64,000 nt of DNA, taken from contig JAQGDQ010000151.1 of the NCBI GenBank assembly GCA_030141605.1, positions 429,611-493,610 of the forward strand, given 5' to 3'. Made by a program: the position numbers and the translations under genes. This document shows positions 23,750-64,000 of this stretch, piece by piece; position 1 is the stretch's first letter, and each line of letters starts with the position of its first letter. Source of the DNA: Tubiluchus corallicola. Taxonomy: Eukaryota > Animalia > Priapulida. The notes beneath the pieces were generated by a model. The model worked only from the letters and a program-made list of their open reading frames with translations. It had not been told where the DNA came from and searched no databases.

Positions 23750-33488
<9,739 letters not shown>

Positions 33489-42343: not shown

Positions 42344-43111
42344 GTATTTATTGCATACATTATAACGCTTAATTATTGGACAAAGTTAGATTATTGGATT
42401 AGTTTTAACAACTGATAATTATAAATTAAATTCAAACATTGTAAATGTTTGCCATGTAAATTTACGTACTAAAATAAGTTAATTTAGTGATATAACTATT
42501 TTTTCTTTTTGAAAATTCTTATATTGTTGTGCTGATTATTTAGCTTTTCCTAAAAACTGTGGGACAGCAATTATTTTCACAGTTTTTAATCACTTCATCG
42601 AAATTGATAAGACTGCACATTATAAGGATGCTAAATAAGCGTCAGCATTAAAGCCGTAAACAACAAGGAAACTTCCAAAATGACGTTCGTAACTCTACGA
42701 CCAGAAAGTGCAGATATCACTAATTTAGAAGATGAACAATTACTGTGTAAAAGTTAACACACGCTAGAACATGCACTGTAACTTTAAGCATGAATAATCG
42801 GAAAGTATAGACCATACGTGACTAGTATGAGGCACTAATTTCAAAAACCTATCTCAGCTTGAAATACGAAAGTCGTAATTTTTTGTTTATGTAAGCTGAA
42901 TTATGAAAAAATAATGACATTTGGCACTTTTATTAATACCTACGGTGTCACCGATTACGTAGTGGTATTTAAATTTAAAAAAAGTTAATTATTAGCATTT
43001 TACATCATCCCTACTTAGAAGTTTGCATCAACTGTTAATCCTAAGTAATTTATCGTAATGGTTTTTGATAAAGCGCTTAAGTTGCAGCTTTTCTTTGTAT
43101 TTATAGGCATC

Positions 43112-44292
43112 ATGAGAGCAACATTGGCAATCCTCCTTTCCATGGTGGTCAGTGCTCTGGCCGAGGGTTATGGCCAGCAAGGTGGGCAACAGATTGTTCA
43201 GGCTCAGCAGTTTGTGCAGCAACAACAAGGCTACGGGGGAGCTCAGGTGCAGGCTAGCAGCGCACCAGAATACTTCACTACTACCCGGTATGGACCTATC
43301 AGCAGTGGTGGTCTGAGAGGAGAAGGAGATCGGTCAAGCAGCTTGACCTATACCAGACAAGGTAGCGCATCTGGTAGTCTGTTCAGCAGGGACCAGGCTG
43401 AGGCAACAGAAACTGCCAAGAAGACCAGAGGATATGAATACAGATACAGGTAGATTACTATACATACTAAACTTTTGAATACATCTATTTATGGTACTCG
43501 GAATGTCTCATTTTTGAAGACACATCATTGCTTCCTTTAGCTTGTTAGTTCAATAATAATTTTCATAAATGGCGACACCTACTAACGGCGTAGAAATAAT
43601 AGATTGCTAAATTACACATAACCTGATGATATCTATTGAAAAGAAAGGTAGAGCCTCATGACCGAACACCTTTTTAATAACAGATGTAGAAAAGTTAATA
43701 AGAGCTAAGTTCATTGTAACGTACGTCATAAAAAAGAAAGGTTACTAGCCATTACTGAATTTCAAGATATGTAGAATTTCGTTAATATGTTTATAAGAAT
43801 TGTTCATTTTTAAGAACAGAAAACTATGCATAGTATTAGTATTAGTATTAGTATTAGTATTAGTATTAGTATTAGTATTAGTATTAGTATTAGTATTAGT
43901 ATTAGTAGAGCACATCCCTCGCTAAAACAGAGTACGGCCCTGTTCTTGACTTCTCATTCTGGCTTGCAGTATTCAAACTATATAAAAAAATTCTGTTCCC
44001 TACAATTTTGTTGTCAGAATGTTCCGTAGTTCACGCCAGAATTTCAGTGTTCACTGTTGCATCTTAAATTTCCAATGTCATTTTTAGGGAAGGGCACAGT
44101 TACGAACAGCCAAAGACTCTGTATAACTACGACATCGAGGAACCCATTTGGGGATTCGCTGACGTCGACGTTGTTTATCGTGGTGAAGGTGGCGACGTCC
44201 CACGACAAGTTCAACCAGTTGTCCAAGTCCAACCAGTTGTCCAACAGGTCCAACGGGGATACGGTGGTGGACAAGCCCAGCGCGGCTACTAA
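43112..44292 (+). CDS. Secreted Gln/Gly/Tyr-rich protein A of unknown family; join(43112-43449,44088-44292), 180 aa
   Basis: Signal peptide MRATLAILLSMVVSALA; phase-2 intron AG|gtagat...tttttag|G; exon 2 reads EGHSYEQPKTLYNYDIEEPIWGFADVDVVYRGEGGDVPRQVQPVVQVQPVVQQVQRGYGGGQAQRGY*; 92-aa core is 83% identical to protein B with the same intron position. Confidence 0.92.
43831..43907. repeat. (TAGTAT)n microsatellite in the intron of protein A
   Basis: Direct inspection. Confidence 0.95.
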
Positions 44293-46272
44293 ATCTGAAA
44301 AACTGCTAATAAGGAATCATGAAGTGGGTTTGTTTGGTCCTGGTAGCATTTAGAATGATAAGGCAGCGAAAATCCAAGAAAAGCATTGCCAACATTTGCA
44401 CTTCTATGTGGCACATGTAATAGATTTAATGTACAATAGCAAACGTCCAAAATAGTGACCATTATTTTTACACCAGGTAGGCTTTTTCTGAAATTGCGCA
44501 CATCGACTAAAACAAAAATTTCCACATTTTCTCATTTGCTGTCCACAGCATCGCTTGTTTATTGCATTATTGGCAAAAGTCAGTAAAATTGGTATTACTG
44601 CAACTAACTGGCGATCGAAGCAAACCCACTTCGGGCGTTAACTGACCAAGGAAACCGACTGTTTCAGGGTAACATCGAAACAGTGGATTGAACCAAAAAA
44701 TACAAAGAAAATAGAGCTGCGAAAAGCAGATGGGAGGTAGTGCATCATACATTTTATTTTGTTTCTTTTGAATTTTTAGCTAGAGCAAACACCAAAAAGA
44801 GTGTCTTGGTCACTGGGAATATTTCTAAATTGTTTTTGTTTCTTGTATAAAATTATCTGGTGCTACAGTTACACGTTAATAGTTGCCAATGTTGCACATT
44901 TTAAAGAAAAAAAGCACTACCTACCCACAAAAATTAATAAACTATGATCTAATTACTATTACTAGTGTAAGTAGGAAATTAATGACGTCAAGCCAAGTTG
45001 CCGCTGTCGGCGTTTGTCGACGTCAGGGCCATCTATTGTTGGAGCAACGAACTTTGACGTTTGTAATATCATGATTGTAAATCTAGTATTTTGTGAATAT
45101 GGCCTCGTGTTGTCACAATTGCTTTACATTTATATATATATCTAAGATTTTACTCAGTCTGTGATGTTGACATTTTGTACGTTTTTATTGATTTTTTGTG
45201 TTTTGCATTAAAGATATTGTAAATAGCATTATACACTCGTATTTCTTTGATTTCTTCCTTCACTTCGCTATCTTGGTTGCATGTCCGTCTCCTGTCTATA
45301 ATGCCATTTCTGCTTAATTTTGCTATAAGACGCAAAACGCAAGCGCAAAGAATCAATTAAAATAAGATAAGAATTTTTATTTCACAATGCGTGGAAGCCA
45401 TTATATATAGTGATATATATATATATATACGAAGAAGCAAGCTATCTAGTCGTCCACCAGAGCATTTATTAAACAGTGATTCAAATTGAGCTACTCATTA
45501 TACAGCTGCATAAACTAGAATTCAATGAAGTTTTATACTAAGCATAAACAATTCTTTTAAGAAAAAATAACCATCAATTAAATCAAGTTCGCAAAAATAG
45601 TAAATAACAGTTATAGATATTTAGTAATAAGTATTTACAAACTAGACTGTTTGTGAGCTTACATATAAGTTTTATCTTCTGATATAACACACGCATAACA
45701 ACAAGTTTACGCACAACATAAGGTTGATGAGATCGCGAATATTTTGATAGTAAATAGTGTTTTTTTAACTTTTTTATACTAATGATGATTTAGTTCTTTA
45801 ATATTGCCATGTGTTTCGTTCCATGTTAAATGTTGTAGTTTACATAAATATATTGGTTCTACCGGGCGGCATAAAGCTATTACTTGCATATCTTGCTATG
45901 AATTTCACTGATTGGTTGTAGTCGAGTGTGTACTGACGCAGCCAGATTAGTTGACTGGTTTCTTAAGTTTTTTTTTTGATTTTGCATGAAATGCACATTG
46001 TAAGTCCATGGTTTCACGTGTATACAGAGCAGGCGTATTTCCACGCGTTGTCACGCTGAATAGAAAGTTGCAGGGTGCGCTGTCAAACTAGTCACATCAA
46101 TTCCCACGTTGTTGGTGCTGCCATCTGTGGGACAGGTAACGAAACGGGAAATGAGAGAAACGAGACGGTAAGACGAAATGCGCGAACATGAGTCATTTAT
46201 CTTAAAAAAACGCACACATTTTCATTTCCGCGATCACATAATGACAGTTGAAACAAGAAAACAAACAGTTAA

Positions 46273-46485
46273 AATTATTTAAAGATTCTAATTTATCTTA
46301 GGCGTGATTGGGAAATAATAATGAAGACCATGAATTGATGATGGATAATTTTTTGCTTAGAATAAAGGTTTTAAGATTAATTATTTAAAGATTGTAATTT
46401 TTTCATGGGCGTCATTGGAAATTAATAATGAAGACCATGAATTAATGATGGATAATTTTTTGCTTAAAATTAAAGTTTTTTAAAA
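46273..46485. repeat. About 106-bp AT-rich tandem duplication
   Basis: AATTATTTAAAGATT...ATGAAGACCATGAATT...GATAATTTTTTGCTTA occurs twice. Confidence 0.85.
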
Positions 46486-46929
46486 AGTTATAAAAGTTAT
46501 AAAAAGTTATAAAACTTAAAAGTTATAAATCGAAAAAGTATTCTAACCAGGATGCCTAATAATTACTATAGTATAGGTAAACGAAGCAAATGTTCGTCAT
46601 GATGCTCGACTTGCAAAAATCAGTCTTGACTTTTTTCGTATTTCCCACCTTTTAGTCGAGTTTGTCTTAAGAAAATGAATATTCTGGAATTTTTCTCATA
46701 TTCAAGCGTCGCCTGAAATGTAATTAGTGATGCGAGTGGTGGACTTTCCAATAATTCCGGATGAGTAAAATATGTAATCATCAAACATAAGATTATTTTG
46801 TCGTGATATTTGCCACAGAATATGTGATGTGCAACCACCTCATATTTTAAATCACGACCGGTGTGCGCAGTTATTGGACATTATGTTTGACAGTAGTACA
46901 TTCCACTAATGTGTTGTACATGTTTCGAA

Positions 46930-49270
46930 AAAGGAAATTAAAGTGCAGTGCTGTTGTACAACATTCAGCGTGATAATTTACGTTTAAATTTAAGTTTTAA
47001 GTTTGTCGATGTGCTAACGTATAAGCTCTCGTGCTACGTCACAAAAGAACGCCTCTGAACTGAGAGGTATGCTGTCTGTACAATGCATTTCCATCTGTGC
47101 AGACGAGGCGTCCACCAAACTAGTGAATGGGGAGAACGCGAACGTGAAATAAGAATTCTTTCACACAAGTCACTCTTAAGAAAAAAAAACAAGTGCATTC
47201 TCTTTCAGTGTTTTATACATTAGCTTATTTTAGCTGTAGTAAAAATTGGGTCCTGTTCTTCTTGATATAGATGACTAATTGTGTCGCTTTAAATATTTTA
47301 TTATAAGGCAAGCTAAAATACATCACAGCACAGCAATATCTAGTTCCGATGATACCAATATAAAAGGCATGCCTTATGTCTATAATGATAAAAAATAGTG
47401 GAAGTAAAGCAAGCGTTGCTATCCCATTGAAATGTTCAGTTACAAATATCGCAGGCACACTTTGTCAAGGCATCTGCACATAATGCTCAAGGATTTTTTT
47501 GTTTGACAAAATGTGCAACAAAGTCTGTGAGCTAATAAAATTTTACACACACGGGCATCGTGCTATCTTTTATTTACTGCCATAATGATGACGTTGCATT
47601 TTTACATGCGGCGGAAAATCCGATTTAACCTTTGCCAAATTCGAAGTTGCCAACATCGAAAATGCCAAAACTTTAAATTGTCATAATTTTGCAAATATTT
47701 AACATAGAACTGCAAAGTAAATCACCTAATTTTGCGAAAATTTAACTTAGAATTTTATGCAATATATTTCGAACGAAAATTTTAAATTATTTTTGAATAT
47801 TTGGATTTAGATCCGGCAGAAATCCAAGACGACTCTCATGCGCCTTATTCTCAAATATCCAATTTTGGTAAGGGATTTTTAATGGAATACTTGACATCAT
47901 TTTCAACCAAGATATTCATTTTCAATATTCATATTCATTTTCAACCATTTCTGAAATCAGCAATTTTTGCATTTAGATAAGTGAGAATTAAAGCATATCT
48001 ATTGCAATAACTTGGCAAATGACAATGTATGTTTCAATAATTCATTATCCCAAAACGGGGATGTCTCTAAACTAAGACTATGGATAATTCTATAAATTAA
48101 ACACGTACCTATAGTGAAATGTGCATACATGCATATGATCTTTGCTCAAGTAGCCTCCTGAACACAAGCACCAGCTTTAGTGCACTTGCAGCATCCACTA
48201 CACCATTTCTCACAGTGGCAGTGAATAAGTCTATGCAGGATTTTGACGCTTCTGAGAGGGTGGTCCACAGAGGCTGCCACTCAGTAGGTTTCTTTGTCGA
48301 ACCTAATATCAGATGTGTTTGGCATTGCTGGATTCAGGAAAAATACTTGATTCCAATACTTGGCCTGGTAGCAAGTGCTGCTTTAGACCTGCCTGTGTTG
48401 ATGGGATGTTCTCCACAGATCTTACTTTTTGTGTAAACAGCTGCTTTTGCTTCAAATACTCCTATGCTGCTTGTAGTATGGTCGTGGATTATCACAACAA
48501 ATATCTCTGGAAACGTGATTGATCCTTCAGAAATTCCATTTGGCGTATCTCTCAGTGAATGCATTTGATCCTTTTCGCCACCAGTGGCGAGCAAACAGAC
48601 ATCAATAAAAATTATCTGTCTGTGAGATCTACCACAGGATCAACTTGACTTCAGAACCACACCAAATAACAATTGATAAATTACATTTAAATTATCAGTG
48701 GAAAATGAATATCATTTTCTCCGAGGTGAGATGACCGAGAAGTAGGGCCAAAATTTCTAGCCTGTGTATCTGAAACAGCAATGCCAACCAGTGTAGGCTT
48801 CAACAGTTTATGTAACTAGCTTTTGTCATTTGGTGGCCCAGTAGGCTTTAATGATGTATTTTTGTGTGAAAAGAATCAGCTGATCAGCACCAGTTTGTTA
48901 AAGGAAAACCTAACCCAATGTTAAACAATCTACCCTATAAAATATTGAAAAAGAACATACTATTTTTCCAAGAATGACTCACATGAAATAATTGTTACCA
49001 GCGGCTAGTTCTTCGTTTGAGCAGCTAGTTCTTCACTGTATATGCACTACTTTGCCATTCGCTTCTTAGATCATGAGCACTAGCGCCTGCACCTTAGAAA
49101 AAACAAGTGCTGTACCTCTCAGTTCAGAGGTGTTAAGTTGTGATGCAGTACAAACGTTCGCAAGCTGATTTACAGCGGTAAATTTGAAATTTGAATTCTA
49201 AGCTTAAAATTTGACTAGTTTTTGTATGTCGCACTGAATGTTGTATAGTAGCATCGTACTACAATTTTCG
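46930..49270. mobile_element. Degenerate element bounded by long imperfect inverted repeats
   Basis: AACGCCTCTGAACTGAGAGGTA (47048-47069) vs TACCTCTCAGTTCAGAGGTGTT (49113-49134), and TACAACATTCAG (46957-46968) vs CTGAATGTTGTA (49234-49245), colinear in inverted orientation. Confidence 0.5.
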
Positions 49271-49579
49271 CTATGTTCAGTTGTCATGTCATCACTAGTT
49301 GAGCTCCCCCGCCGTTAATTAAGTTTTTAATGTACTATTTAATTATCAGAAACGTTTTGGCATAATCATAGGTATTAAAATGTATACATTTTAATATTTT
49401 TCAAAATGGGGTAGGATGTGAAAAATCATACTGTTTTAACAGTAACCAAATTAAGAACGTCGCCGTTCTTTCAGAGACAAAACCGCATCAGTGATGCGTC
49501 AGACGAAAACAACGCTATCAATAAGTACTTCGCATACACCTATCACTTGTATAAGTCAAAAATTAGTTTAGTTTAAACT

Positions 49580-50745
49580 TTATTTATTTATAGCGAATTT
49601 ACAAAACAGACTGCGTATCTCCACAGTGCAAGTGCTGAATGCAAAGTGCTAATAAAAAAATAATTGGCATCACAACTAATAATATCACAACACTCGGTTC
49701 GATAAAACATTTGACTCAATTACAGTTAACAGATGGTAAATAAACTTACATACACGAACACAGTATAAACACAATATTTTAATAACAACAGTATTAATAA
49801 AAATACATTTACAAAATAAGTTGGCTGATTAATCATTTAACAGTAAATTCTATTGTATCGTGTATTGTATCGATTAAAAGGTTGATTTAAGAAACTGCTG
49901 TAATAACTGTGGATAATAAAGCAAGATGGGGGACCAGTTTTGAATTTTTTGTAATATGTTTCTGTATAATACTACAGGATTATAATTTTGTAAGGATTCA
50001 CGTATTACAATCTGGTGGTCGAGTAGGTCGTCTAATAATGCCGTTCTAGCTGTATCATATTTTACGCATTCGAAAAAGTAATAGTAAGAACTTTTGGGGT
50101 CGTCAATTAAGTTTCTAATAAAAATTTCATCTTTTAGCTGAGAAATTTTTTTAATACATCTATTTCTAAACATTTCGTTAGTCCGACCATTATTGTATCG
50201 AGGGCATAATATATTTGTGGGAAGATTCCAAAAGGCAAGCATTTTTATTTTTGAACGAAATTTTGGAAGTATATGTTCCTCTAAAATCTTTGGGCAAAGA
50301 GTTCCAAATTCTTGTGCCTTTTTGAAAAAAAAAAGTTATACAATTGTCTTGTAGGTTTTAGACAAGATGGGTCACGGGTGGGATAATATTCTACACTTAC
50401 GCGAAATTTATTACTTCATTTAAGTAGTCTGGAGCGGGGTGATAAAACAGGTTTTGGATTGTTTGAACAATAAGAAATTCATTCCTGGCTTTTAAAGAGG
50501 TAAGATCGAGTAATTGATTAAGGTTTATTTGGCTGCTGCCTTTGATAGCACCCGATATTATTAGCATAGCACGGTACTGAATTCTTTCTATTTTCAAAAA
50601 ATTTGCTATTGCGCAATTTGACCAAATTACAATCCCGTATTCAATTATTGGTCTTGCAAATGCTTTATAAAAATTGCCATATTATACGTAGCTGGTTTGA
50701 ATTTGAGTAAATAAAGTGAATGAAGTATTTTGTTGGCTTTTTGTA
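49580..50745 (-). mobile_element. Degenerate 5'-truncated non-LTR retrotransposon (CR1/L2-like LINE, RT C-terminal region)
   Basis: Broken frames read FYKAFARPIIEYGIVIWSNC...KIERIQYRAMLIISG, RIWNSLPKDF, and a degenerate zinc-knuckle YYFFEC; ends in an (TAAA)n-like tail near 49580. Confidence 0.8.
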
Positions 50746-50759
50746 CATCTTGCTTATTG

Positions 50760-51967
50760 AAACTCATAGACTGGATCGTCCTCAATAAATTTCGAGACAA
50801 TCTTAAAGCTGTGATTTGCAATATGCCTACATGAAAAGTTGCTCAACAGATCTTTGTACATTAATATTGAAAGAACCTGTAAACTATTATATGGTCAAAA
50901 ATTCGCCCGTGTATTGCTGCCTCATCGACTTTTCAAAAGCCTTTTGTCGCGTAAACATTGCAAAGCTGATTTCAAAACTGAAAGAAAACTGTAATCTTCC
51001 AAACTATGTTCTTGCTTTAATGTTAAGTACTTACTTAAATCAAAATGTATCTATTCAGTGGAACAATACTAAGTCATTCTCTTTTTTGACAACCAATGGA
51101 ATACGCCAAAATAGTATTCTGCCTGGAATTTTGTTAACCATATAAATAGATGACTTGCTTATGTCTCTTGGTAGGCGCAATATTGGATGCCACTTGCTGA
51201 ATAGTTACACTGGAGCTCTGGGGTATGTGGATGATGTAACCCTGCTGGCACTGCCTTAAATCAATGCTCAGTGTCATGATTCTTAACTCCAGGAAAACAA
51301 AGTGCGTTTTATTTACTAACATTTAGAACTTAATTAACTTACCTACAGTCATAGCTAATATACAGCGTTAAATTGGACCGATGAAGTGAGTTACCTGGGT
51401 CACAAACTAACATCAAACCTTAATGAAATTACTGATGTTGTAAGATGTAAAAAAGATTTTATTTCGTCTGTTAACGCTATTTTGTGTTCTTTAAGTCAGT
51501 GACAGATAACGATTTAACGATTTACCAAAGAACTGTAAGTCGAAGTTATTTACTGACAATAGAAAAGCATTGAGACGAATCTCAAACTTGCCCAGAAATT
51601 CTCATTCCAGCATGACACTGTGCATTGCTGATACAAATCCTCTAGATATACTCTTCCATAAGCGAATTTTAAAGTTCTATTGTAGCACAAATTTATCTGT
51701 TAATCCAGTTCTTTGCTCCATTGGCTGTGTTAAATAACAATACCAGCCGTACTTGAACCACCATACTTATGCTTATAGACCTGTCAACATAATAGCGGCA
51801 TTCTGTTCTGAACTTTGCATAATGAATATGTAATTGAAGGTTTCACAGTTAATTATATTAATGAAATGTTGTATTCGCTACTAACAACATAATGTATATA
51901 CCAATGTAAATAACACTACTTACCCTATTATATTACATGTAATGCAATCATTATTTGTGAATAAAGA

Positions 51968-51970
<3 letters not shown>
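50760..51970 (+). mobile_element. Degenerate LINE reverse transcriptase fragment
   Basis: STDLCT..VYCCLIDFSKAF, NGIRQ, IDDLL, GYVDDVTLL (YxDD), YLGH motifs across frameshifts and stops; ends AATAAA then (TA)n at about 51960-52007. Confidence 0.85.
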
Positions 51971-52013
<43 letters not shown>

Positions 52014-52931
52014 CATGGAAGTTCCATTTAAGCACAGAATTGAATATTAATCCCAGATGTTTGACTGAATTAACCACTTCAACTTCAGAATTGCCGAAAA
52101 CTACCCCATTTAGTCCGATGGTAATCTTTTACGTGAATAAAAAATTGTTAAGTGAACAAGTCAGAAATTGTTAAGTTTAAATTTTGATTCATGCTTAGCA
52201 ATTACTATCAAAGCAACAGAAACAAGGCAGAAGTTTCCAAGTGAACAAGATTTACACGAACATTTGATGACGGCAGTTGATATTGCTCGTAGTAATAACT
52301 CATCCTTAATGAGGTGTCTGGATAGTCTACGAGATGGTTGTGCATAGGAGACGATTCGAAGAGAGTAAAGTGATAGCTAAAAATTCAGTAATAACTAGCG
52401 ATAAATTGAAAAGAGTTGCTTACTGTAAATTTAACCCGAGTTTGAAAAAAACCTGAAATACCATGTTCCATTCCAGAGTTTCCCCATAATCTCAATGATA
52501 TTATGAAAACAGGTAAGATGCGTCGGTGAGACGCGACACCATCGACTGTGCAGATGTGGAGAAGTACAAACTGAAGAACAAGTGATCTCGTCCTGTACAT
52601 TCGCTCGTGATATAAGACTCTCTTACTCTAGGGTGAATTTTGAAACGTTGTTAGATTGTTTTAGCAATGAAGACTGCTTTGCAATTTGTTTAGAGTGTTT
52701 CAAATAGGTTATAGTCATAGTCTGTGATGTAATGTTAATTTAGCCGACAGTAGTGATATTCAATTATCAAAAGCATTATAAGGAATAAAATGTATATTGT
52801 GCATCACATATCAAAATGAAAAATCGTGTTTTCCTTTAAATGGCCATAAAACAGTGAAAAAATTATAATGCTTGCTACAGCTACCGCTGAAGGCAGCAGT
52901 TGTCACAAACATTCCTAGATGACGTAAGCAC

Positions 52932-54905
52932 TCAACAGAATTTGTCCCTGTAAAACTTTCGAATTAAGTCACCAAAAGTCGATTGGTACTTGTGCGAATC
53001 ACAAACGCGCATATGAGTATCACGGCGCATGCCCCCTGCCCACATAAACAAATGTAAGAAATAATATGATCGTAAATCAACGTATTCTTTAAATAATTTT
53101 CCCTCGAAGTCATCAAATACATAACGCCTAATGTGACAAAGTTTCGGGTGACGTTTAGCTATTGAATATGGCACCCCACCGGAATTATATATCCAGTCGT
53201 CTGCCTTATAATCAGTCTTGTAACTTTCATACCACAGTCGTAGGAATGTAGCATTTGGCTCGGCCATAATCATGCCAGAGTTCAAAACATTCCCTTCAGT
53301 GTGCATTGTGCACGGGTAGTACTGCATCATTGACACATCCTGCAGTACCAATACATCAAAGTCCAAATAAATTCCTCCATATTTCAACAGCACTTCTATA
53401 CGAGCAATGTCGGCTTCGTGTTGTATGTGCTTAATAGGCTTTCCATTCATGTGATCTTTCATCTCATGCCGTTTTATCTCGATATTAGGAACTCTGTGAA
53501 ACAGTTCACGCCACCATAACCCCCGAGGCTCTCTGTTACAGTGCAAATAAATTTTTTCTGGTTTTAAAATTTCATTGGCGCTAATAGGGCCCAAAATCCT
53601 GACTAGTTCCAGTTCTTGAAAAATGTCGTCAGACTCCGTGAACCAAATATAATGAAGGATATTAGGCACCCTGGAAATTTCACTCCTTTCGTCTACTTCG
53701 TTTTCTATACTATTTGAAATTTCACTAGGCATTTTGACCCTTCGAACAAACATTTTGTTGTAACTTTCAAGTTTTTTGTTTTTCAACTGTATACCAGTCT
53801 TGTTGCTAAACCCTGAGATCGGTGACAAACCTGCATTATTAGTCGCTGTTATAAGTGTATGAGTGGTCTCTTCAGATGGAAACAATGTATCATAAATTCC
53901 AGGAATGTGGTACACTGATGGCACATTAGAGCATTCGCAATCTACAACAACAAAAACACGATGAATAATATAATTTTGCAAAATAAAGCCGATGTTGTCG
54001 TTCCTGTAATTTTATTGCTGGTAGGGTTAGTGTCATTTTCGCTACCGTTTTATTGCCTTTGTTGATACTAACTTTTTTCTTAATTGATGCTGCATGTCGT
54101 TCGCGTTGCAAAAATGATAACAAACTTGGCATTTGAACCCAAGACAGTGAGTTCCATAGCTTTCCGTATGAGTTGACTTACTGCATCTACCTGAACAGCT
54201 TGATCTTTACTCACTGCCGTGCAGTACCGGCATTCGACATGAAAAAACTTTTTTATAGACCCAAATATGGACTGGAAAAGCAGAGGAAGATACCACCTTG
54301 GACGTATATGCCCTCGTCGCAATAACAATTAAAAGAGCATTTTCAAATAGAATTGTTTCACACTGATGGATATACTGCATATCTTCCTTCTACGAGAGAA
54401 ACAGCCGGGTTAGTACGATAGAAGTACTCTTTCTTCCTGGCAGTTATCCACCTATTCATTAATCAGGATAAACGTTGCTTAACTTTGCATCCAGGCGCAT
54501 ACAGCAACTACGTAATTATTCTCTTCATCCTAACCACAATAAAATTTCATGTCCGCCAACATGTTGACTAAAAGGGGGATATTCCGTATACATGTATTTC
54601 AGTTAACAATATACACGTAAGGCTTAAGAAAACTTGAACGGTCGAACTTCTTCATTATGGCCCATTCCCTAATCATGTGATTTAAAAATGTATTCAGACA
54701 TAATTAACAAAAAGTGAAATTTCAATGTGATAAAGGAGGAAAGTGTTTTCAACTTACACAAGTCTTCTGTCCTCTTCATGGGAAGGACAAATTTTTTCTC
54801 GATTGTTCTGCCCAAGCTTATACGCATCCACACTGTAATTCCGACAACAGAGATAAGTAAAGAAGCTGCGACGGTTCTCTGGCAGGCTTTCCGCGTCGTT
54901 AACAT
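52932..54905 (-). CDS. Type II membrane glycosyltransferase, GT32 / DXD sugar-binding family (alpha-1,4-glycosyltransferase-like); complement join(54758-54905,52932-53941), 385 aa
   Basis: Exon 1 encodes basic tail plus TM helix (VAASLLISVVGITVW), donor T|gtaagt; acceptor ttgttgtag gives in-frame Tyr. Catalytic motifs VPNILHYIW, ADIARIEVLLKYGGIYLDFD (DXD), NSGMIMAEPNATFLRLW, W.YNS..VP. Acceptor at 54931 implies an upstream UTR exon. Confidence 0.9.
54180..54400 (-). mobile_element. Possible highly degraded LINE RT remnant in the glycosyltransferase intron
   Basis: Minus strand GGC ATA TAC GTC CAA GGT GGT ATC / CCT CTG CTT TTC resembles the GVxQGGILSPLLF RT motif with frameshift. Confidence 0.25.
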
Positions 54906-57779
54906 CGATCGTTAGTTTTCTCGACTACATCTACAGTAAAAGAGAAATTGATTAAAATTCCATCTGCACACTGAACTGCTCGCAATATTTTTACTCGAAA
55001 AATTTTGCAGCTATTCCTCCCCCCCCCCATACACATACACAGTCATATATACTCCAAAGTGATTCTTTGAAAAATGTGTCGGTCGTGTAAAACGTGGTTT
55101 TCTGAGTTGTGTTACATTTTTAAGACATCTGACGCAAGATATAGGTGCTTGACTTTAAGTGTTTGTAATACAATTGTGTTTTTATATTACCATTTTTACT
55201 TTACTTAGGAAACTACATTTTTTTGTAAAACTTGCTAGTGTTTTAATACCTAGACATTTATTTTAATTTTTAATGCACACGGCGTGTTAGTTTCGTTTGT
55301 ACGCAAGTGGAAGGGGGTAATATAAGACTTGCCTTTTCCCATTTTTCTTTTTATTGCAAACTAGGTCAATAATTATTTAGTTGGTTACGTTGTCTGCAAC
55401 TATATGTTGTTGTTTTTAAATGAGTAAATGTTATTTAATATAATTAAATAAATTATATTACAAGAAAAACGTATTACCAAAACAAATGTGATATTGTGCT
55501 GTATCAGAACGATAGGAGAGCCACCTACTGCATTCTGAGGGGTAGTTCAGGTATCTGCAAGAACTACATACAGATCTATAACTAGAAATACGACAAATGA
55601 AATTGTTAAAGAGAAATTCATTTAGGACAATGTTTCGTTTGTTTCTTTAACGAATACGTTCAAAAAAGTAAAAAGTTCAGTTGTGTAAAAATTCAAAATA
55701 AATCTATTTGTTAACGAAATAAATAGATTTTTTCAAAATAAATCTATTTGTTAAAAATCTGTCTGCATTTTTTTACACAGAAACTTACTATATAGTCTTG
55801 CCACTCCTTAGAAACAAGACATTTAAAAACAGTTCTATTGATGCACGCTTGTCTTAATTCAATACTTATCTTATTCCATAGTCTAATTGTTGTTTGAAAA
55901 AAGATGTTATGTAATTGAACTGTAGGTTTCTAAGGGTACGGATCAGACAGCGAGTAACGTCTAATGAAACGATGCTTTGCTAAAATATCACGTGAGCATT
56001 GACGAGCATTATGGAAACAATTTTTTGATTGTTGGAAGGCCTAGTAACAGATTAAGATTGCAATGACTCGTAACCTTCATAGCTTCTGCAATATATTGCT
56101 TTATTTTATACTGAACCCTTACAATCTTTATCTTATAAAAAATTTTAGTTGAACAATTAGGCAACTACTCCCACATCATACCTGTCCTAGATCTCCTTTA
56201 CAAGAAAATAAGTGATTGGTCATACGCTCCACTGAACAGGCTATCTAGCCAAAAAAACCGCCGTGTTAAAGGACAAGGTCATCCAGTTTTGCCTGTTCTA
56301 GAAATTGAAACCAGGTTCAACACAGTGTGTCGAACTTGCTAAGCCAGTGAAGTCGTGCAATATGGCTTCCGACGAACATTATTAACAATCGAAGTCAAGA
56401 CTTAATTATTGTGGCGATAGAAAGTGATTAAAGGGTACTGACACACAAAAGGGGTAGGTGTTCGAGCCGTGAGGCGAAAACACCAATAAACTGGCTATTA
56501 TTCGTTATTTGACGTACTGCTGTAAACGGAAATTCAGGAGATCTGATGCAGATACAACCAGGCGATGACCAGACGTTGTATCAATGGTAGTTTCACGAGC
56601 TCCACGGGTTAAGACTCCACTGCATTCTACTAGGATTGGAGAACTAACCACTTACAACCTCGGTACACCTGACAAGCATTGTAGAAGTGGCTACGTAAGA
56701 TTCCACCCCCTGCTGAGCTTTGGAAGAGTAACTGTTCATGATTTCACGAAGTTCGCATAACCGATTAGTCATATTATTCCAGCTTCCAGAGTGATGGAGA
56801 ACGTCAAATGTGGGAATCTGACAGCTTCCGACTGCAGTCACTACAACTGATAAGTATACTTACCTTACATCCTTCTCCCTCACCTGGGTTGGACTCACTA
56901 GTCTTCTGTTTATCTTAGGTTATCTAGAAACGTCGTTTGTAATTATAACAACTTTGTTGTTATTTTGAATTAAAGTGAATTGTTTTTAGTTCTTATTATC
57001 CCATTAAATCAAGAATTTAATCGGCAATATTAAAAATTGTTTTGTTTGCTTCTGTTCCGAATACATGTCTGTCAACTATGCTTAAATGGAAAAGTTCACT
57101 TAACCCACGTGTCAGCACGTATCAGAAATTAGTAGAAAAAGTGTTTGTGGTGTCATAACGAAAGTGCCCCATATCACAGGTGGTACCCCACATATCACAC
57201 ATACATATTAAACAATCCACAGCAATTTCTATAAATATTTACTAATGGCTTCAGAATATTCCATATTAAAATGTTAGTGCGGTAGAATAGTGTAATTTAC
57301 ATGTGCACTTGAGCGTACCACAAGTCTATATATAAGTAAAATTACTGTAATATTTCTCGTTACATCTCTTGTGTTGTTTGTATTTACTGTGGATTCGTTC
57401 CACCATTAATTAGTAATTATTAAATCAAAATCAAATGTCACACTACGTGTAGAAAAAATATTGGGGTAACTAAACTCGACAGTGGAATATATTACTGACT
57501 TACCTTGCTATAATGATTTGACAAAACATACACCACTTAAACGCAAACTAATATAAAATTCATATCACAGCCTTTTTTGAATTGCACTATGTTCTATGAA
57601 TGGCAGGCCATTTCATGATCACAGCTGTTAGTCCCAGCAGCCCTCACAATTCTCAGTATCGTGGACTTTGTCCTATGACCTCGTATAGTAGAGTAAAACT
57701 GCGTGATCAAATACTCAGACCTGCCGCACAAGTGACATCAACCACTCACTAGCCAGTGCACAGTGAATGAGTTGTGAAT

Positions 57780-58352
57780 CTGTTGCAAACTCTCAGAGCT
57801 GCTGCACCTGTGACGTCATGCTATCAATCTACTTAGTGCAGAGCAAGGCTCTGTATTTGTTGCAAATTGTCAGAGCTGCTGCACCTGTGACGTCATGCTA
57901 TCCAGCTACTCAGCGCAGAGCAAGGCTCCGTATTTGTTGCAAACTCTCAGAGAGCTGCTGCACCTGTGACGTCATGGTGTCCAGCTACTCAGCGCAGAAC
58001 AAGACTCCATCTTTATTGCAAACTTTCAGAGCTGCTGCACGTATGACGTCATGCTATCCAGTTACTCAGCGCAGAACAAGACTCTGTATTTGTTGCAAAC
58101 CCTCAGAGCTGCTGCACCTGTGACGTCATGCTATCCAGCTACTAAGTGCAGAACAATGCTCCGTATTTGTTGGAAACTGTCAGAGCTGCTGCGCTTGTGA
58201 CGTCATGTTATCCAGCTACTCAATGCAGAGCAAGGCTCTATAATTTGTTGCAAACCCTCAGAGCTGCTGCACCTGTGACGTCATGCTATCCAGCTACGTA
58301 TCAGAGCTGTGCAGCATCAGTGCAGAACAAGGCTCTGTATTTGTTGCAAACT
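57780..58352. repeat. 77-bp tandem repeat, about 7.5 copies, each with TGACGTCATG
   Basis: TGACGTCA at 57811, 57888, 57967, 58044, 58121, 58198, 58276. Confidence 0.95.
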
Positions 58353-59555
58353 CAAATATTGTTAATATAAAGCTTAAACAATGGCGACTCTAAGAATGTG
58401 CCCCGCATGGTGCGCCGTTATCTTTCGTAGATCTGCTTCATCAGGAAACTCATAAATTTGTTTAGTAAGTCCTGCATTTGTATAAAACAACGCCGTATTG
58501 ATTTATGGCTTCCTGTTAGACATGTCTAAACCAATGATTTATAAATACACAAGAAACCCAGCTTGTTAAGAAGAATTTCCGTGTGGGAGTGAACAGTGAT
58601 TTATATAATACACAGTCGTTTGAAAATACACAGCTGCCCTCCAGTTCTATAAAGTGACTTCATTCGAAGAAATTGCTTCGAAAAGAGAAAACTCAAAAGA
58701 AAGTAGTTTTTTGTCCAACATTCAAGTTAACTACCAACAGCTCTAATACATTGGTTTGTGTAAATACAGAGACTTTCACAATGAATTTCGGCAGAAACAA
58801 TTTATTTGAAGTTCTTTGTGCGGAAGGTGAAGTCACGCTCGAATCTGCAAAGCGAGTTGCATCAAGTAATGACTTCGTTTCTTCTGATTTTGACGAACTT
58901 CGCTTGGCTAAAAACGGAGTCATATCATCACCTCTATCAAAATCACATGCAAACCAAAACCACTCCCACCTGTATAGTTGTTGAGGCTAATCGCTAAATG
59001 TTGTAACATTCTATATTATAACATTCGTCTTTCCAAACTGGTTTCACCTGTTTTGCTTTATGCTTGTACACGGAATAGCTATTTGTAAGTCTATGCAGCT
59101 CATGTTTGCAATTGAATTCTCAAGTTCCTTGTTGTTTATAACAGAGTTTTCTTGCGGTGCGCCACAAAGTAGTTATTCTATTATCACAATTGACTAGAAA
59201 ATTTTTTTTATGCTTTTTAGTTTTTATTCTTTATACCATATTTAGCTTGCGACGTGAAAATAATTGTAAAGAAACTTTTATTCGACGTATTAGAAGCCAC
59301 TGCACAGCAATAACCAGCTGAGAACACCATTTTCATAATTACTTGCTCTTATTTAAAAACCTATACATTAGCGAGTGTTTTGATAGTTTCCCTTTCATTA
59401 TTTCACATTTTCGTCCATAATTCCATATTACAAATATGTATAAAACTCCTGAAAAAGTGTTGCGGTATTACAATAGTTTGTGACAAATAACTTACCTGAT
59501 TGTTACAGACAAGTAGTGAAGGTATCTCATGTTACCTGTATTTCTTTAATCAGGC

Positions 59556-59893
59556 CTACATGATTACGTTGCCCAATGATAAAATATGCCTGTAAAAGTA
59601 TGCAGAAAGCTGTTTGCTAGCAAAACGAATATTGTGGCTTCCTAGGTAGATCCCCAATAGCAGAAAAAGAGCTTTATAATCAAGAACGACAAGAATGAGC
59701 AGAGGGACAAGAGACTGATGAGGTCTACATGATTACGTTGCCCAATGATAAAATATGCGTGTAAAAGTATGCAGAAAGCTGTTTGCTGGCAAAACGAGTA
59801 TTGTGGCTTGCTAGGTAGATCCCCAATAGCAGAAAAAGAGCTTTATAATCAAGAACGACAAGAATGAGCAGAGGGACAAGAGACTGTTGAGGT
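59556..59893. repeat. 169-bp tandem duplication (2 near-identical copies)
   Basis: CTACATGATTACGTTGCCCAATG starts at 59556 and again at 59725. Confidence 0.95.
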
Positions 59894-60870
59894 GACTAGT
59901 GCATGATTTGCAGAGCAATGTACGCTTGCGCCATCTTAGTACACAATAAACTGTAAAAGATTACTTTTGAAATCTTATAAATTAATCGTTTTGAAGATGA
60001 AGATCAGATTTAATTCGAAAATTTAACTGGATAACTGATTTACCTGCGAGGACGAAAGGGTACTAAATCACAGAAAGTTATTAAAATTATTGAGGGCAGC
60101 TATTTTTGTTACGTTATGCATTTGAGGTGTTGCGGCATCGACTAAAATTCTATTACTGCATCATACGTACTGCATCATTGCTTTTACCATATTATTGTAC
60201 AACATTAATTTGTAACTCCATGTTTGGAGGTGTCTAAAATTATTCTTACGCTTTACTGGTGCTTAAAATATCAAGCGATTACTCAAAATTTGTTAAAAAG
60301 GTCTCCACTGTGACCGAGTGAGCTTTTAACTAACTGCTGTTGACAATAGTGAATTAGTAATATTACACAAGTAAACAATTACTTGTGACAATGTAATGTT
60401 ATGTTTTAATAAGACTTTTATGGCTTAGGCAATAATTTTTGGTTAGGCAATTATTTTCCAACAAATATATTTTGCAGTAACGAAGACATCAAATTTATTT
60501 CAATTAAAAGGCTGCTAAAGTGCAGTGATACGTCTTCATTCCCACGTTGAACAGAACTACTTACAAAATGTGTCAAGCAATTGCAACAATCATCAAGGCC
60601 AAGTTAAAAAACAATAACATCACAAATATAAAAGGTAATGTACAAATTTACAAACGACGAGTTAATTCACAATTAGACACAAAACCGTTAATTAGACACA
60701 AAACCGTGCATCTTCTCCTTGCTTCTTTTAAGCGTAACTAAAATTTAGTTCAACCGAAATTTACATTCTGGAGATGTACGCAAAAATTCTAAACATTAAA
60801 ATCTTTGGATTTTTCTAACTGCTCTCTCTTCTATGACTTCCATTCTTTCTGTGGTTCTCATTGAAGTCGT

Positions 60871-62726
60871 TTAACGAGCAGCGGCTCCAACGTAAACATC
60901 ATCCACATCAGCAAATCCCCAAATGGGCTCTTCAATGTCATAGTTGTACAAGGTGAGGGGTTGTTCATAACGATGTCCAGTTCTAAAGCAAAATGCATTA
61001 AACAGATAAAAATGGTTTACTATGACACTGGTTATGTATTTAGAGAGCTCCACAAAAATTAAGGCCAAAAAGTGATTTCCGCAAATACGAACACACGAAA
61101 TGCTTTTTGCCCTAATCTCTAAAATATTGGTTAATAAAACAGCTATTCGAAACCTTAATCATTTAGGTTTTTTTTTGAAAGTTGCAAAGCAGTTGCATTG
61201 CATTTCAACTTGTACCTTGTTTGGTGATTAACACAATAAAAAATTTACAGCAAAGCAATAACAACATTAAAAGCGTAAAGTAAAAATCGTTGTAACTAGT
61301 TATTATCAAACTGCCCGCAATTGCCGAATTGATGTTGAGCGGCTAATGGAATACTGTCAGCGAGATTTTTTAAATCCTAGAAATTAATTTTGCTTTTAAG
61401 CATCAATCGTGAAGTTAAGCAAAAGGTCTTCCATAATTATTGAATAGTTAAAAGAGTCAAATTGTTAAAAAATTTAACTTCTAGCTACGTTAATGTTTAC
61501 AAAATTCTCTGATCTTGGCCACCATCATTATCCTGATCACCGTCATTGTTATCGTTATCGCCATCATTACTGAATCACCGCCGTGACTAACTCTTATTGA
61601 CAAGAACACTTACAAGTAACTGAAGAATCTCACAATTAAGAAACGAGGAAATACGCGATGTTTCAAGCGACCGTACATTATATTTAAGTGAAGGAAAGGA
61701 AAAAAGATCAAATAAAATAACTTTAGAGAAGTTTTTTATAGAATGGTTTTATAGAATGGCAAATAAGACAAGGGTAATAAACAGCAGTATTATACAGAAA
61801 GTAATAAACAAAAGAAATAAACAGAAGTAATAAACAGAAATCACTGGTCACAATCATAGAACATAGAGTAAGACATACCATAAACTTATGGTTATTTTAC
61901 ATGATTTTTTTCATTTTTTCGCCTGAAGATAAACTAAAGTTGTAGTTTGAAACAGCTTTTTTCTCGTTTCTTTACTGTGGGAATTTAATTAGCCTTCAAA
62001 AAACATCCTGCTTCATTGATAACGTACACTTGATTATTATTAGCCTTTAAATGTAAATAACAATAATGGCGATCGTGTAGTGTGATGACGGCGATGATGA
62101 CGACGACTCGACGACGACAGCAATAACGACGATGACGATGATAATGACGATGATAACGATGATGACGATGGTGACGACGACGACGACGACGACGAAGATG
62201 ATGATGATGGTGATGATAATGACAATGATAAAATAGATGAGGACTATGATAATGACGATGATGTTGATTACAAAAACGACGATAATGAGTATGACGATCG
62301 TGATGATGACAATGGTGATAATGAGGGCAACAATGATCACGATGATGACGGTGACACATCATTATTTTAGTCTTAGACTTGTTCATCGTTATTGTACCTG
62401 TATCTGTATTCGTATCCTCTGGTTTTTGATGCAGTTTCGGCTGCTTCTGCATTATCTCTGCTGTAGAGACTACCGGCAGCTTCACCTCGTCTGGCATATG
62501 ACAGACTGCTAGACCTCTCTCCGGATCCCCTCAATCCACCGCTGCTGATGGGACCGTACCGAGTAGTAGTGAAATAGCCGGGCCTCTCTGACACTTCTAC
62601 GACTTCAACGGCAACAGGTGCGGCTACAGCCGGGACATCTTGTACCCTTCTTCCGTAACTCGCTCCATAATCTTGAGCAAAAATTCCTGCCACTAGGGCA
62701 AAAAACAGCGCCGCGGCAAGCTTCAT
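60871..62726 (-). CDS. Secreted Tyr/Gly-rich protein B, paralog of protein A; complement join(62398-62726,60871-60982), 146 aa
   Basis: Signal peptide MKLAAALFFALVAGIFA; acceptor 8 nt upstream of ATG (exon edge 62734); phase-2 intron AG|gtacaa...gctttag|A; exon 2 reads TGHRYEQPLTLYNYDIEEPIWGFADVDDVYVGAAAR*. Confidence 0.92.
62060..62355. repeat. (GAT/GAC)n degenerate trinucleotide repeat in the intron of protein B
   Basis: Direct inspection; source of His/Ser/Ile-rich ORFs. Confidence 0.9.
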
Positions 62727-64000
62727 GTTGTAATCTAAAAGAAACTTGTGACTTTAATTTCACGATTTTGATTTAAATAATGCAAAAGGCTTCGCTAAAA
62801 TAATAGCTTCAGTAGCAACTCAACCGAAAAAGTGAAACATCGTTTTAAACAGATTAAAATAAATGTGTAACTTGGGCACGTTTAATATTAGACAGGAGGA
62901 AACTAAACGTTGGATTTATTTAATTGACCAATTACTTTTTCAATGCATTACATAAAATTTTAAGGTTTTATTCAGCTCACAACATTACACGTAGCATTAA
63001 AATTCAATGCGCTGAGGGCATCGTGAACTGGCCCAGAAAACTAAAAAAGTAGGCCACCAAATAACTCTTAAATTAATTGGCGTCTTATTAGTAGATGTGC
63101 GTGAGGTTTTAACGGCGAGGAATTTTTCTGTACAGGTTTATGGTCTCAGTTAATAGATGGAAGGGGAGTCGTGTGCGTGTTGCACATTGATAGACCGAGA
63201 AAAGAAAAATATGGAGTAAATACTAAAAAGGATCTAAAGTCTTCGGCATTAATTTTGAATAACAACAAATTCTCTCGTATTCTTTTATATTCGCCAACTA
63301 AAAACGAACGAATACTTAAAAAAGTAAAACATTACAGAAGGTTCTTAATAGCAAATAAAAAGAGAAACGCTTTGATAACCTTTATAGGGTTTATTGTAAC
63401 ACAACAAAAGTACGCTTCGACAATCTATAAATACGTCAATACTGTTACTGAGAAACAATCGACAAAACATCACCACAAAAGCATTCGTTAATGTTTTGTT
63501 GTTTGTTTCTCAGCACGGAGAAATACTTCTATTAATATAATATAAGGTCACGTCTGCCTAATTAATTTTAGAACATCTTTAAAATTGAAATTATTAATGT
63601 GCATTCAACTTAAGAAACGAAACGTCTTGGCTAATATTTTAAATCATAATATGCCATATAAAGGTTATTCAATCTTAATGCTTTTCTCATTTCTTTGTTG
63701 TTAAATATTAACTGTAATGTTAATGGCTGCAGAATTTGTTAGGACACTAGCTGAAAGTGGTTTTAATCTTAAGAAACTTTTCCAAAGATGAAAGCGCAAA
63801 AAAAAACTCCATCCAGGAAACTTCTTTGACGTATCATTTAATGTTTGTTACCATAATTTAATTACAGTAACAGTAATCGCTTCTTAGTGAACTAGCTTTT
63901 TAACTGTCACACTTGCACAATCATTTTTGAATGATTCTTTAGATCTCACAAAATGCTAATTATATTCACATGATAAGCATAACAGGTCACATAATAGTAT

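Follow-up and report, generated by a model that had tools for sequence, protein, structure and literature searches.

Nematode and arthropod cuticles are each built with their own lineage-restricted families of low-complexity proteins (PMC9629831), and moulting in pancrustaceans involves lineage-specific genes (PMC13539456). The CPR proteins of arthropods are defined by the domain PF00379 (PMC13449613). For the chitinous ecdysozoan cuticle, the IDPA, IDPB, IDPC, APPG, NSPB and FIPR families of the C. elegans pharyngeal cuticle have been proposed, which are secreted and of low complexity and are described as largely disordered and nematode-confined (PMC9629831). Priapulids have a tri-layered cuticle that is moulted (PMC5011709), their teeth are chitinous (PMC10525141) and the lorica is discussed as chitinous cuticle (PMC8588615). 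In the literature searched we found no paper naming a priapulid cuticle protein. Here we describe two genes, A and B, in a stretch of 64,000 nucleotides from the priapulid Tubiluchus corallicola (contig JAQGDQ010000151.1; hereafter the window). Both encode predicted secreted proteins with a common core domain that appears to be undescribed, and 49 columns of this domain likely form extended beta structure with one invariant face. Like the CPR proteins, A and B belong to a large paralog family with a signal peptide, a Cys-free, aromatic-rich core and G/Y/AP-rich arms. In contrast to the CPR proteins, the priapulid core is longer, contains a 49-residue alternating segment free of proline and gaps, and matches neither PF00379 nor the consensus. 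The family is also lineage-restricted, secreted and of low complexity like the C. elegans families, but it has a strongly conserved core, and no named nematode match was obtained in representative and profile searches.

Joining the exons by coordinates yields proteins of 180 amino acids for gene A and 146 amino acids for gene B (Table 1). A preliminary description of this DNA had reported two convergent, spliced genes that are split at the same codon. The joined exons confirm this: the genes are convergent, the introns have GT-AG ends, and both are in phase 2 and split the same Arg codon. Likewise recovered were the ungapped core of 92 residues, of which 76 are identical, with 10 and 11 Tyr, and the complete lack of Cys in both proteins. 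The N-termini are hydrophobic, with Kyte-Doolittle maxima over 11 residues of 2.57 (A) and 2.75 (B), in agreement, by hydropathy only, with the signal peptides that had been claimed, and each ATG is indeed preceded by a pyrimidine tract and an acceptor-like AG. Low-complexity arms had been described at both ends. This is true in general, but not for the C-terminus of B, where six residues follow the core. A third copy within the window was found neither by tblastn nor with the hidden Markov model (HMM) of the family.

The core sequences of A and B have diverged mainly at synonymous sites. In the 16-codon stretch singled out before, a recount again gave nine differing codons, all synonymous, and over the core different codons are used at 41 of the 76 identical residues. 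Comparison of A with B resulted in a dS of 1.71, a dN of 0.13 and a dN/dS of 0.077 (NG86/JC). Because so many identical residues use different codons, and with this dS and this ratio, we conclude, in line with the preliminary description, that A and B arose by an old duplication and are subject to strong purifying selection.

Conservation within the core alternates from residue to residue. We aligned 25 first-exon cores, namely 13 from Priapulus caudatus, 10 from open reading frames (ORFs) of Logan, and those of A and B. Columns 17-65 alternate strictly between conserved positions with a mean entropy of 0.69 bits and variable positions with 2.24 bits, an alternation that none of 20,000 shuffles reached. 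Spectral power was 1440 at 180 degrees and did not exceed 39 at nine other angles. The pattern is also present in subsets of the alignment, with 24/24 adjacent pairs in the 13 P. caudatus rows and 22/24 in the 10 Logan rows, and even the two Tubiluchus genes reveal it, since A and B differ at none of 24 even, but at 11 of 24 odd positions (Fisher p 2e-4). Proline is absent from columns 17-65 (0/1213 residues, compared to 72/704 in the remainder of the domain), and there are no internal gaps. The segment shows the period of 2, the lack of proline and the lack of gaps expected of a protein that forms beta-sheet fibres, such as a functional amyloid or beta-ribbon. Gly, Ala and Ser account for 46% of the conserved face, Tyr and Phe for 15%. 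Fixed on this face are Arg26, Arg34, Asp46, Glu52, Lys56 and Arg58, with three Tyr at its end, while the opposite face is mostly polar.

A strict alternate-residue pattern is that of extended beta structure with one buried face, and we consider such a structure, with one invariant face, likely for the 49-column segment. The unbroken parity over 49 residues would be compatible with a single strand of about 17 nm or with hairpins that have odd-length turns; an internal repeat between the two core halves was not found. Burying such a face would be difficult for a single chain, so we infer that the protein assembles with further chains or on a polymer. Small residues at alternate positions are reminiscent of the beta-sheets of fibroin. 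Unlike in silk-like proteins, however, the alternating segment is unique and non-repetitive and carries fixed charged and aromatic residues.

Paralogy of A and B was thus correctly recognised before, but the two are not merely a pair: they sit in a larger multigene family. We scanned 1.84 billion representatives in full by HMMER with a two-sequence first-exon profile, a query by which remote homologs may be missed, and obtained 25 hits. Among these, 23 are members (E 3e-29 to 2e-9), 13 from Priapulus caudatus and 10 Logan ORFs; P0025, a translated tandem repeat, and P0026, a WD40 protein, were dropped as chance hits. A profile of the second exon retrieved 6 proteins among 117 candidates, all from P. 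caudatus. After three further additions the RefSeq models of P. caudatus total 17, and 13 of them contain both core halves. Named relatives outside P. caudatus were not found in the representatives searched, and coverage of kinorhynchs and loriciferans may be poor. A word search with exon 1 of B missed P0003 within its length range, a false negative that makes blanks of this search weak.

The P. caudatus models share the core (for the 13 models that have both halves, 45-84% identical to that of gene A), a hydrophobic N-terminus and low-complexity arms with A and B, but none is identical and no source names the shared domain. The core of gene A is 84% identical to the closest P. caudatus cores and 83% identical to B. 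Two models, XP_014668263.1 and XP_014668264.1, lie at adjacent loci and are tandem copies. The models are labelled keratin-, loricrin-, elastin-, fibroin- or FUS-like or uncharacterized; these names are automatic, mostly mistaken and reflect low complexity. Because 7 of the 10 Logan ORFs end exactly at the codon split by the intron in A and B, the intron position is likely family-wide. In the trees, several of the Logan ORFs cluster with individual P. caudatus paralogs, which suggests subfamilies that are shared across species. Four branches are starred; only a few branches in these trees are supported, and orthologs of A or B are not resolved. Three models look mis-predicted. P0006 (XP_014674124.1) joins an LRR protein to the second-exon half of the family; it is likely a gene-model chimera and was kept out of the core alignment, the core statistics and the trees. 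P0001 (XP_014678922.1) carries an additional second-exon half and is much extended at its N-terminus. P0008 (XP_014663846.1) departs from the family pattern within exon 2.

Most members are also predicted to be secreted and have low-complexity arms. Hydropathy indicates a hydrophobic N-terminus in 25 of 28 members, and in two of the three exceptions the hydrophobic stretch lies further in, behind a long N-terminal extension. Arm statistics were computed for 26 proteins, leaving out P0001, P0002 and P0006. The arms contain 21% Gly, 7% Tyr and 0.5% Cys. GYG occurs 69 times compared to 12.6 in shuffles and AP[AV] 14 times compared to 3.4, values that were reached by 0/1000 shuffles, and GGY and YG are likewise enriched. 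Motifs of the GYG and AP[AV] type typify arthropod cuticle proteins. The family has a CPR-type layout, with a signal peptide as judged by hydropathy and arms rich in G, Y or AP. SilkSlider, a rule for silk-like proteins such as fibroin, shematrin and chorion, selects secreted proteins in which glycine makes up at least 25% of an 80-residue window (PMC4944945). This glycine rule is passed by 12 of 26 database members (9/16 from P. caudatus and 3/10 from Logan, the latter first exon only), but by neither A nor B.

The claim that the domain is unrecognised has stood up to all comparisons with Pfam, NCBIfam, the PDB and the literature. Neither PF00379 (Chitin_bind_4) nor PF16009 (DUF4779) matches a sequence in the set of 27 database members and 4 window exons, and among 22 members PF16009 gave no match even with E allowed up to 10. 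In these Pfam searches HMMER filters discard most matches above an E of about 0.1. The Pfam lines that members did give concern the LRR part of P0006 or are sub-threshold and unrelated. The Rebers-Riddiford pattern, in a strict and a loose form, is found in none of 29 proteins, so that the layout resembles Rebers-Riddiford proteins without the consensus, as noted before. Other Pfam models of arthropod cuticle proteins (Retinin/CPLCA, CPF, CPCFC and Tweedle) did not match, nor did the six-cysteine ChtBD2 of CPAP and peritrophin proteins: the core of A, B and the 13 P. caudatus models contains no Cys, and Pfam gave no match. By the tests run, the A/B family is outside CPR, CPAP and any Pfam cuticle family.

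Searches beyond Pfam gave a similar picture. NCBIfam had no relevant match for 12 sequences, Rfam gave 0 matches, and sequence searches of the PDB yielded no match (best E 0.083). One PDB search and one search for relatives used a 27-row profile which covers only the 65 positions of the first exon and includes one wrong-frame row. The core of B had no usable hit in the ESM Atlas. P0003 gave leads only, arthropod low-complexity proteins with scores of 0.75-0.81; for scores below 0.9, shuffled proteins do as well in one case out of three. Metagenome scans returned 0/387 candidates for exon 1 and 2/278 for exon 2, and a scan of prokaryote genomes 5/59; these seven loci are chance matches of 10-18 residues (best E with the family HMM 0.75). 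A description of the family was not found in the literature searched, which excluded most subscription papers and all supplements, where gene lists could mention the models, and DUF4779 was not mentioned in it either.

Transcript evidence comes from run X2, which is RNA by guess and carries the same species label as the window; among the runs recorded as RNA, none contained the stretch. One X2 contig skips 638 nt at the intron of gene A, as expected for a spliced transcript. The mapper sets the junction three bases early, which fits one synonymous difference at the joint. Because 8 of 113 letters differ, the contig may represent an allele, another population or a close paralog. The intron position of gene B is spanned by another X2 contig, but with 31 other letters between; this contig is therefore a spliced paralog and not B itself. 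No transcript of B itself was seen among the X2 contigs. The 5' arms of A and B are not covered by X2 contigs, which carries no weight either way. In both runs there are contigs that match the core but continue into other flanks, and for this reason the Tubiluchus genome likely contains further copies of the family. On the 3' side of gene A, an ATTAAA at 45207 adjoins the end of an X2 contig at 45216. At 44517-44590, in the likely 3' untranslated region (UTR), two of the X2 contigs lack 67 or 72 nt, with non-canonical ends; these skips are probably indel variants or paralogs. Upstream of gene B there is a TATA-like box at 63289; a donor was not found with the pattern used.

What could such proteins do? 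On the sequence data, we think it rather probable that they are structural proteins of the priapulid cuticle which assemble through the long beta-strand core and work like arthropod CPR proteins. A place in the cuticle agrees with the source of the named relatives, which belong to a cuticle-bearing, moulting animal. The conserved cores of these predicted secreted paralogs would pair as long beta-strands, and sheets or fibres would result, probably as part of the cuticle. The invariant face would act as assembly surface and, since it is common to all paralogs, could allow them to co-polymerise. Tyr clusters and the aromatic C-terminal third might contact chitin or become cross-linked during hardening, and the variable G-, Q-, Y- or AP-rich arms might adjust mechanical properties in trunk cuticle, lorica, scalids or teeth. 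The preliminary description had proposed a chitin-binding or self-assembling module; alternate-residue conservation favours the self-assembly half of this proposal, and chaeta or shell, which were among the materials considered, are unlikely given the priapulid affinity. A more far-reaching version, which we offer only tentatively, would see a priapulid-own domain with a single strand of about 49 residues (about 17 nm) and an invariant face through which dozens of paralogs, their arms differing, co-polymerise as beta-ribbon fibres along chitin. This would be a scalidophoran counterpart of the arthropod Rebers-Riddiford family, either independent or a deeply diverged ancestral ecdysozoan relic.

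Several results speak against a cuticle protein that assembles through beta-strands. Both AlphaFold monomers are of low confidence (pLDDT 47.8 and 56.2; pTM 0.18 and 0.15), contain no strand and place a helix at core columns of about 41-58. This helix conflicts, however, with the conservation moment, which is 0.76 at 180 degrees and 0.10 at 100 degrees. Foldseek gave 0 matches with a low-confidence model as query, which says nothing on the fold. Neither size complementarity (p 0.28) nor mutual information over the 25 rows supported an antiparallel register, the latter giving no covariation diagonal. A register centred on Gly40 is attractive, but is not claimed as the register tests were not significant. 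Furthermore, the strict motif AAP[AV] is not enriched in the arms (1 compared to 0.5), A and B both fail the SilkSlider glycine rule (0/2), and egg envelopes and adhesives carry the same compositional signature. The proteins might be self-assembling structural proteins of a non-cuticular material, such as an egg or fertilisation envelope or an adhesive or mucus secretion. Chorion and silk proteins have G/Y-rich arms too, and the glycine-window rule does not tell these materials apart (PMC4944945). Nevertheless, at least 17 gene models, several subfamilies and very different arms would fit a regionally varied cuticle better, and we judge a non-cuticular material to be quite improbable.

The Rebers-Riddiford domain is thought to fold as a monomer on the chitin chain, and the priapulid core could do the same as a chitin-binding module, perhaps as a remote Rebers-Riddiford or DUF4779 homolog. 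Its aromatic-rich, Cys-free composition, the one-sided conserved face and the CPR-like overall layout are all compatible with this, and the ESM Atlas neighbours include a pupal-cuticle-like cluster (0.80), Retinin_C (0.76) and, as a weak feature neighbour and a lead only, DUF4779 proteins of arthropods (0.75). The Lys-x-Arg-Gly-Tyr region may in part resemble DUF4779. On the other hand, the Pfam models and the Rebers-Riddiford pattern match no member, Atlas scores of this size are common among shuffled proteins, and the mostly small residues of the invariant face suit tight sheet packing over sugar stacking. We therefore regard a monomeric chitin-binding module as unlikely. Even less probable, in our view far less so than the cuticle role, are precursors of signalling or antimicrobial peptides, with the core as processed peptide, or soluble secreted binders. 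The signal peptide, the small size, the Gly-rich arms and a conserved basic Lys-x-Arg motif within the core would agree with this, but no conserved dibasic site flanks the core and column 55 is mostly Ala. Conservation of the core extends unbroken through about 90 residues, with a period of 2 and free of gaps, and to our knowledge peptide precursors do not show this; moreover, the arms resemble those of structural proteins.

Table 1. Features of genes A and B in the window, and related models of Priapulus caudatus
Feature	Position	Strand	Remarks
Gene A, candidate non-coding first exon	TATA-like box 42262, donor-like site 42344	+	putative, upstream
Gene A, acceptor-like AG	43105..43106	+	5 nt ahead of ATG, with pyrimidine tract
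Gene A, coding exon 1	43112..43449	+	predicted signal peptide, Q/G-rich arm, core codons 1-61; phase-2 donor at end
Gene A, predicted signal peptide	about 43112-43162	+
Gene A, period-2 segment (family columns 17-65)	43304..43449	+	predicted long beta-strand, one invariant face
Gene A, intron	43450..44087	+	638 nt, GT-AG; exon joining; 638-nt skip in X2 contig
Gene A, coding exon 2	44088..44292	+	final 30 core codons (to 44178), V/Q/G-rich tail, stop
Gene A, likely 3' UTR	44293..45216	+	X2 contigs, most of region at about 94% identity
Gene B, acceptor-like AG	62735..62736	-	8 nt ahead of ATG, with pyrimidine tract
Gene B, coding exon 1	62398..62726	-	predicted signal peptide, V/A/P-rich arm, core codons 1-61 (from 62582)
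Gene B, predicted signal peptide	about 62726-62676	-
Gene B, period-2 segment (family columns 17-65)	62398..62543	-
Gene B, intron	60983..62397	-	1415 nt, GT-AG; codon and phase as in gene A
Gene B, coding exon 2	60871..60982	-	final 30 core codons (to 60892), 6-residue tail, stop
Closest models			XP_014664989.1 (FUS-like), XP_014678922.1 and XP_014677301.1 (keratin-like), XP_014667205.1 (loricrin-like)
Closest models, continued			XP_014678404.1, XP_014666838.1, XP_014680505.1, XP_014678354.1, XP_014668263.1, XP_014668264.1, XP_014666824.1, others

The window contains further features. A multi-exon gene for a Cys-loop receptor subunit at 27219-33488 on the plus strand matches Neur_chan_LBD and Neur_chan_memb and is, judging by its vicinal cysteines, probably nicotinic acetylcholine receptor alpha-like. 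Between A and B, a long open frame on the minus strand (52932-54011) encodes a DXD glycosyltransferase domain (PF04488, E 3.7e-9) without a PDB match. In the same interval, decayed fragments of a non-LTR retroelement extend over 49874-51737, with several short frames on both strands and an RVT_1 match at 50807-51142 (E 3.5e-4). A tandem repeat with a 77-bp unit (6.7 copies, 86% matches) is located at 57781-58297.

For reconstructing what the ancestral moulting animal was like, priapulids are of central importance. It is described as unclear whether the cuticle proteins of arthropods and nematodes have separate origins or have diverged beyond recognition (PMC9629831). A conserved, alignable priapulid family provides a third lineage in which the origins of cuticle proteins can be tested. 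The family also offers markers for epidermis and moulting, and at least 17 RefSeq models that were misnamed or unnamed are corrected. If the structure proposed here is true, a non-repetitive strand of 49 residues that is conserved on one face only would be unusual as a unit from which protein materials are built.

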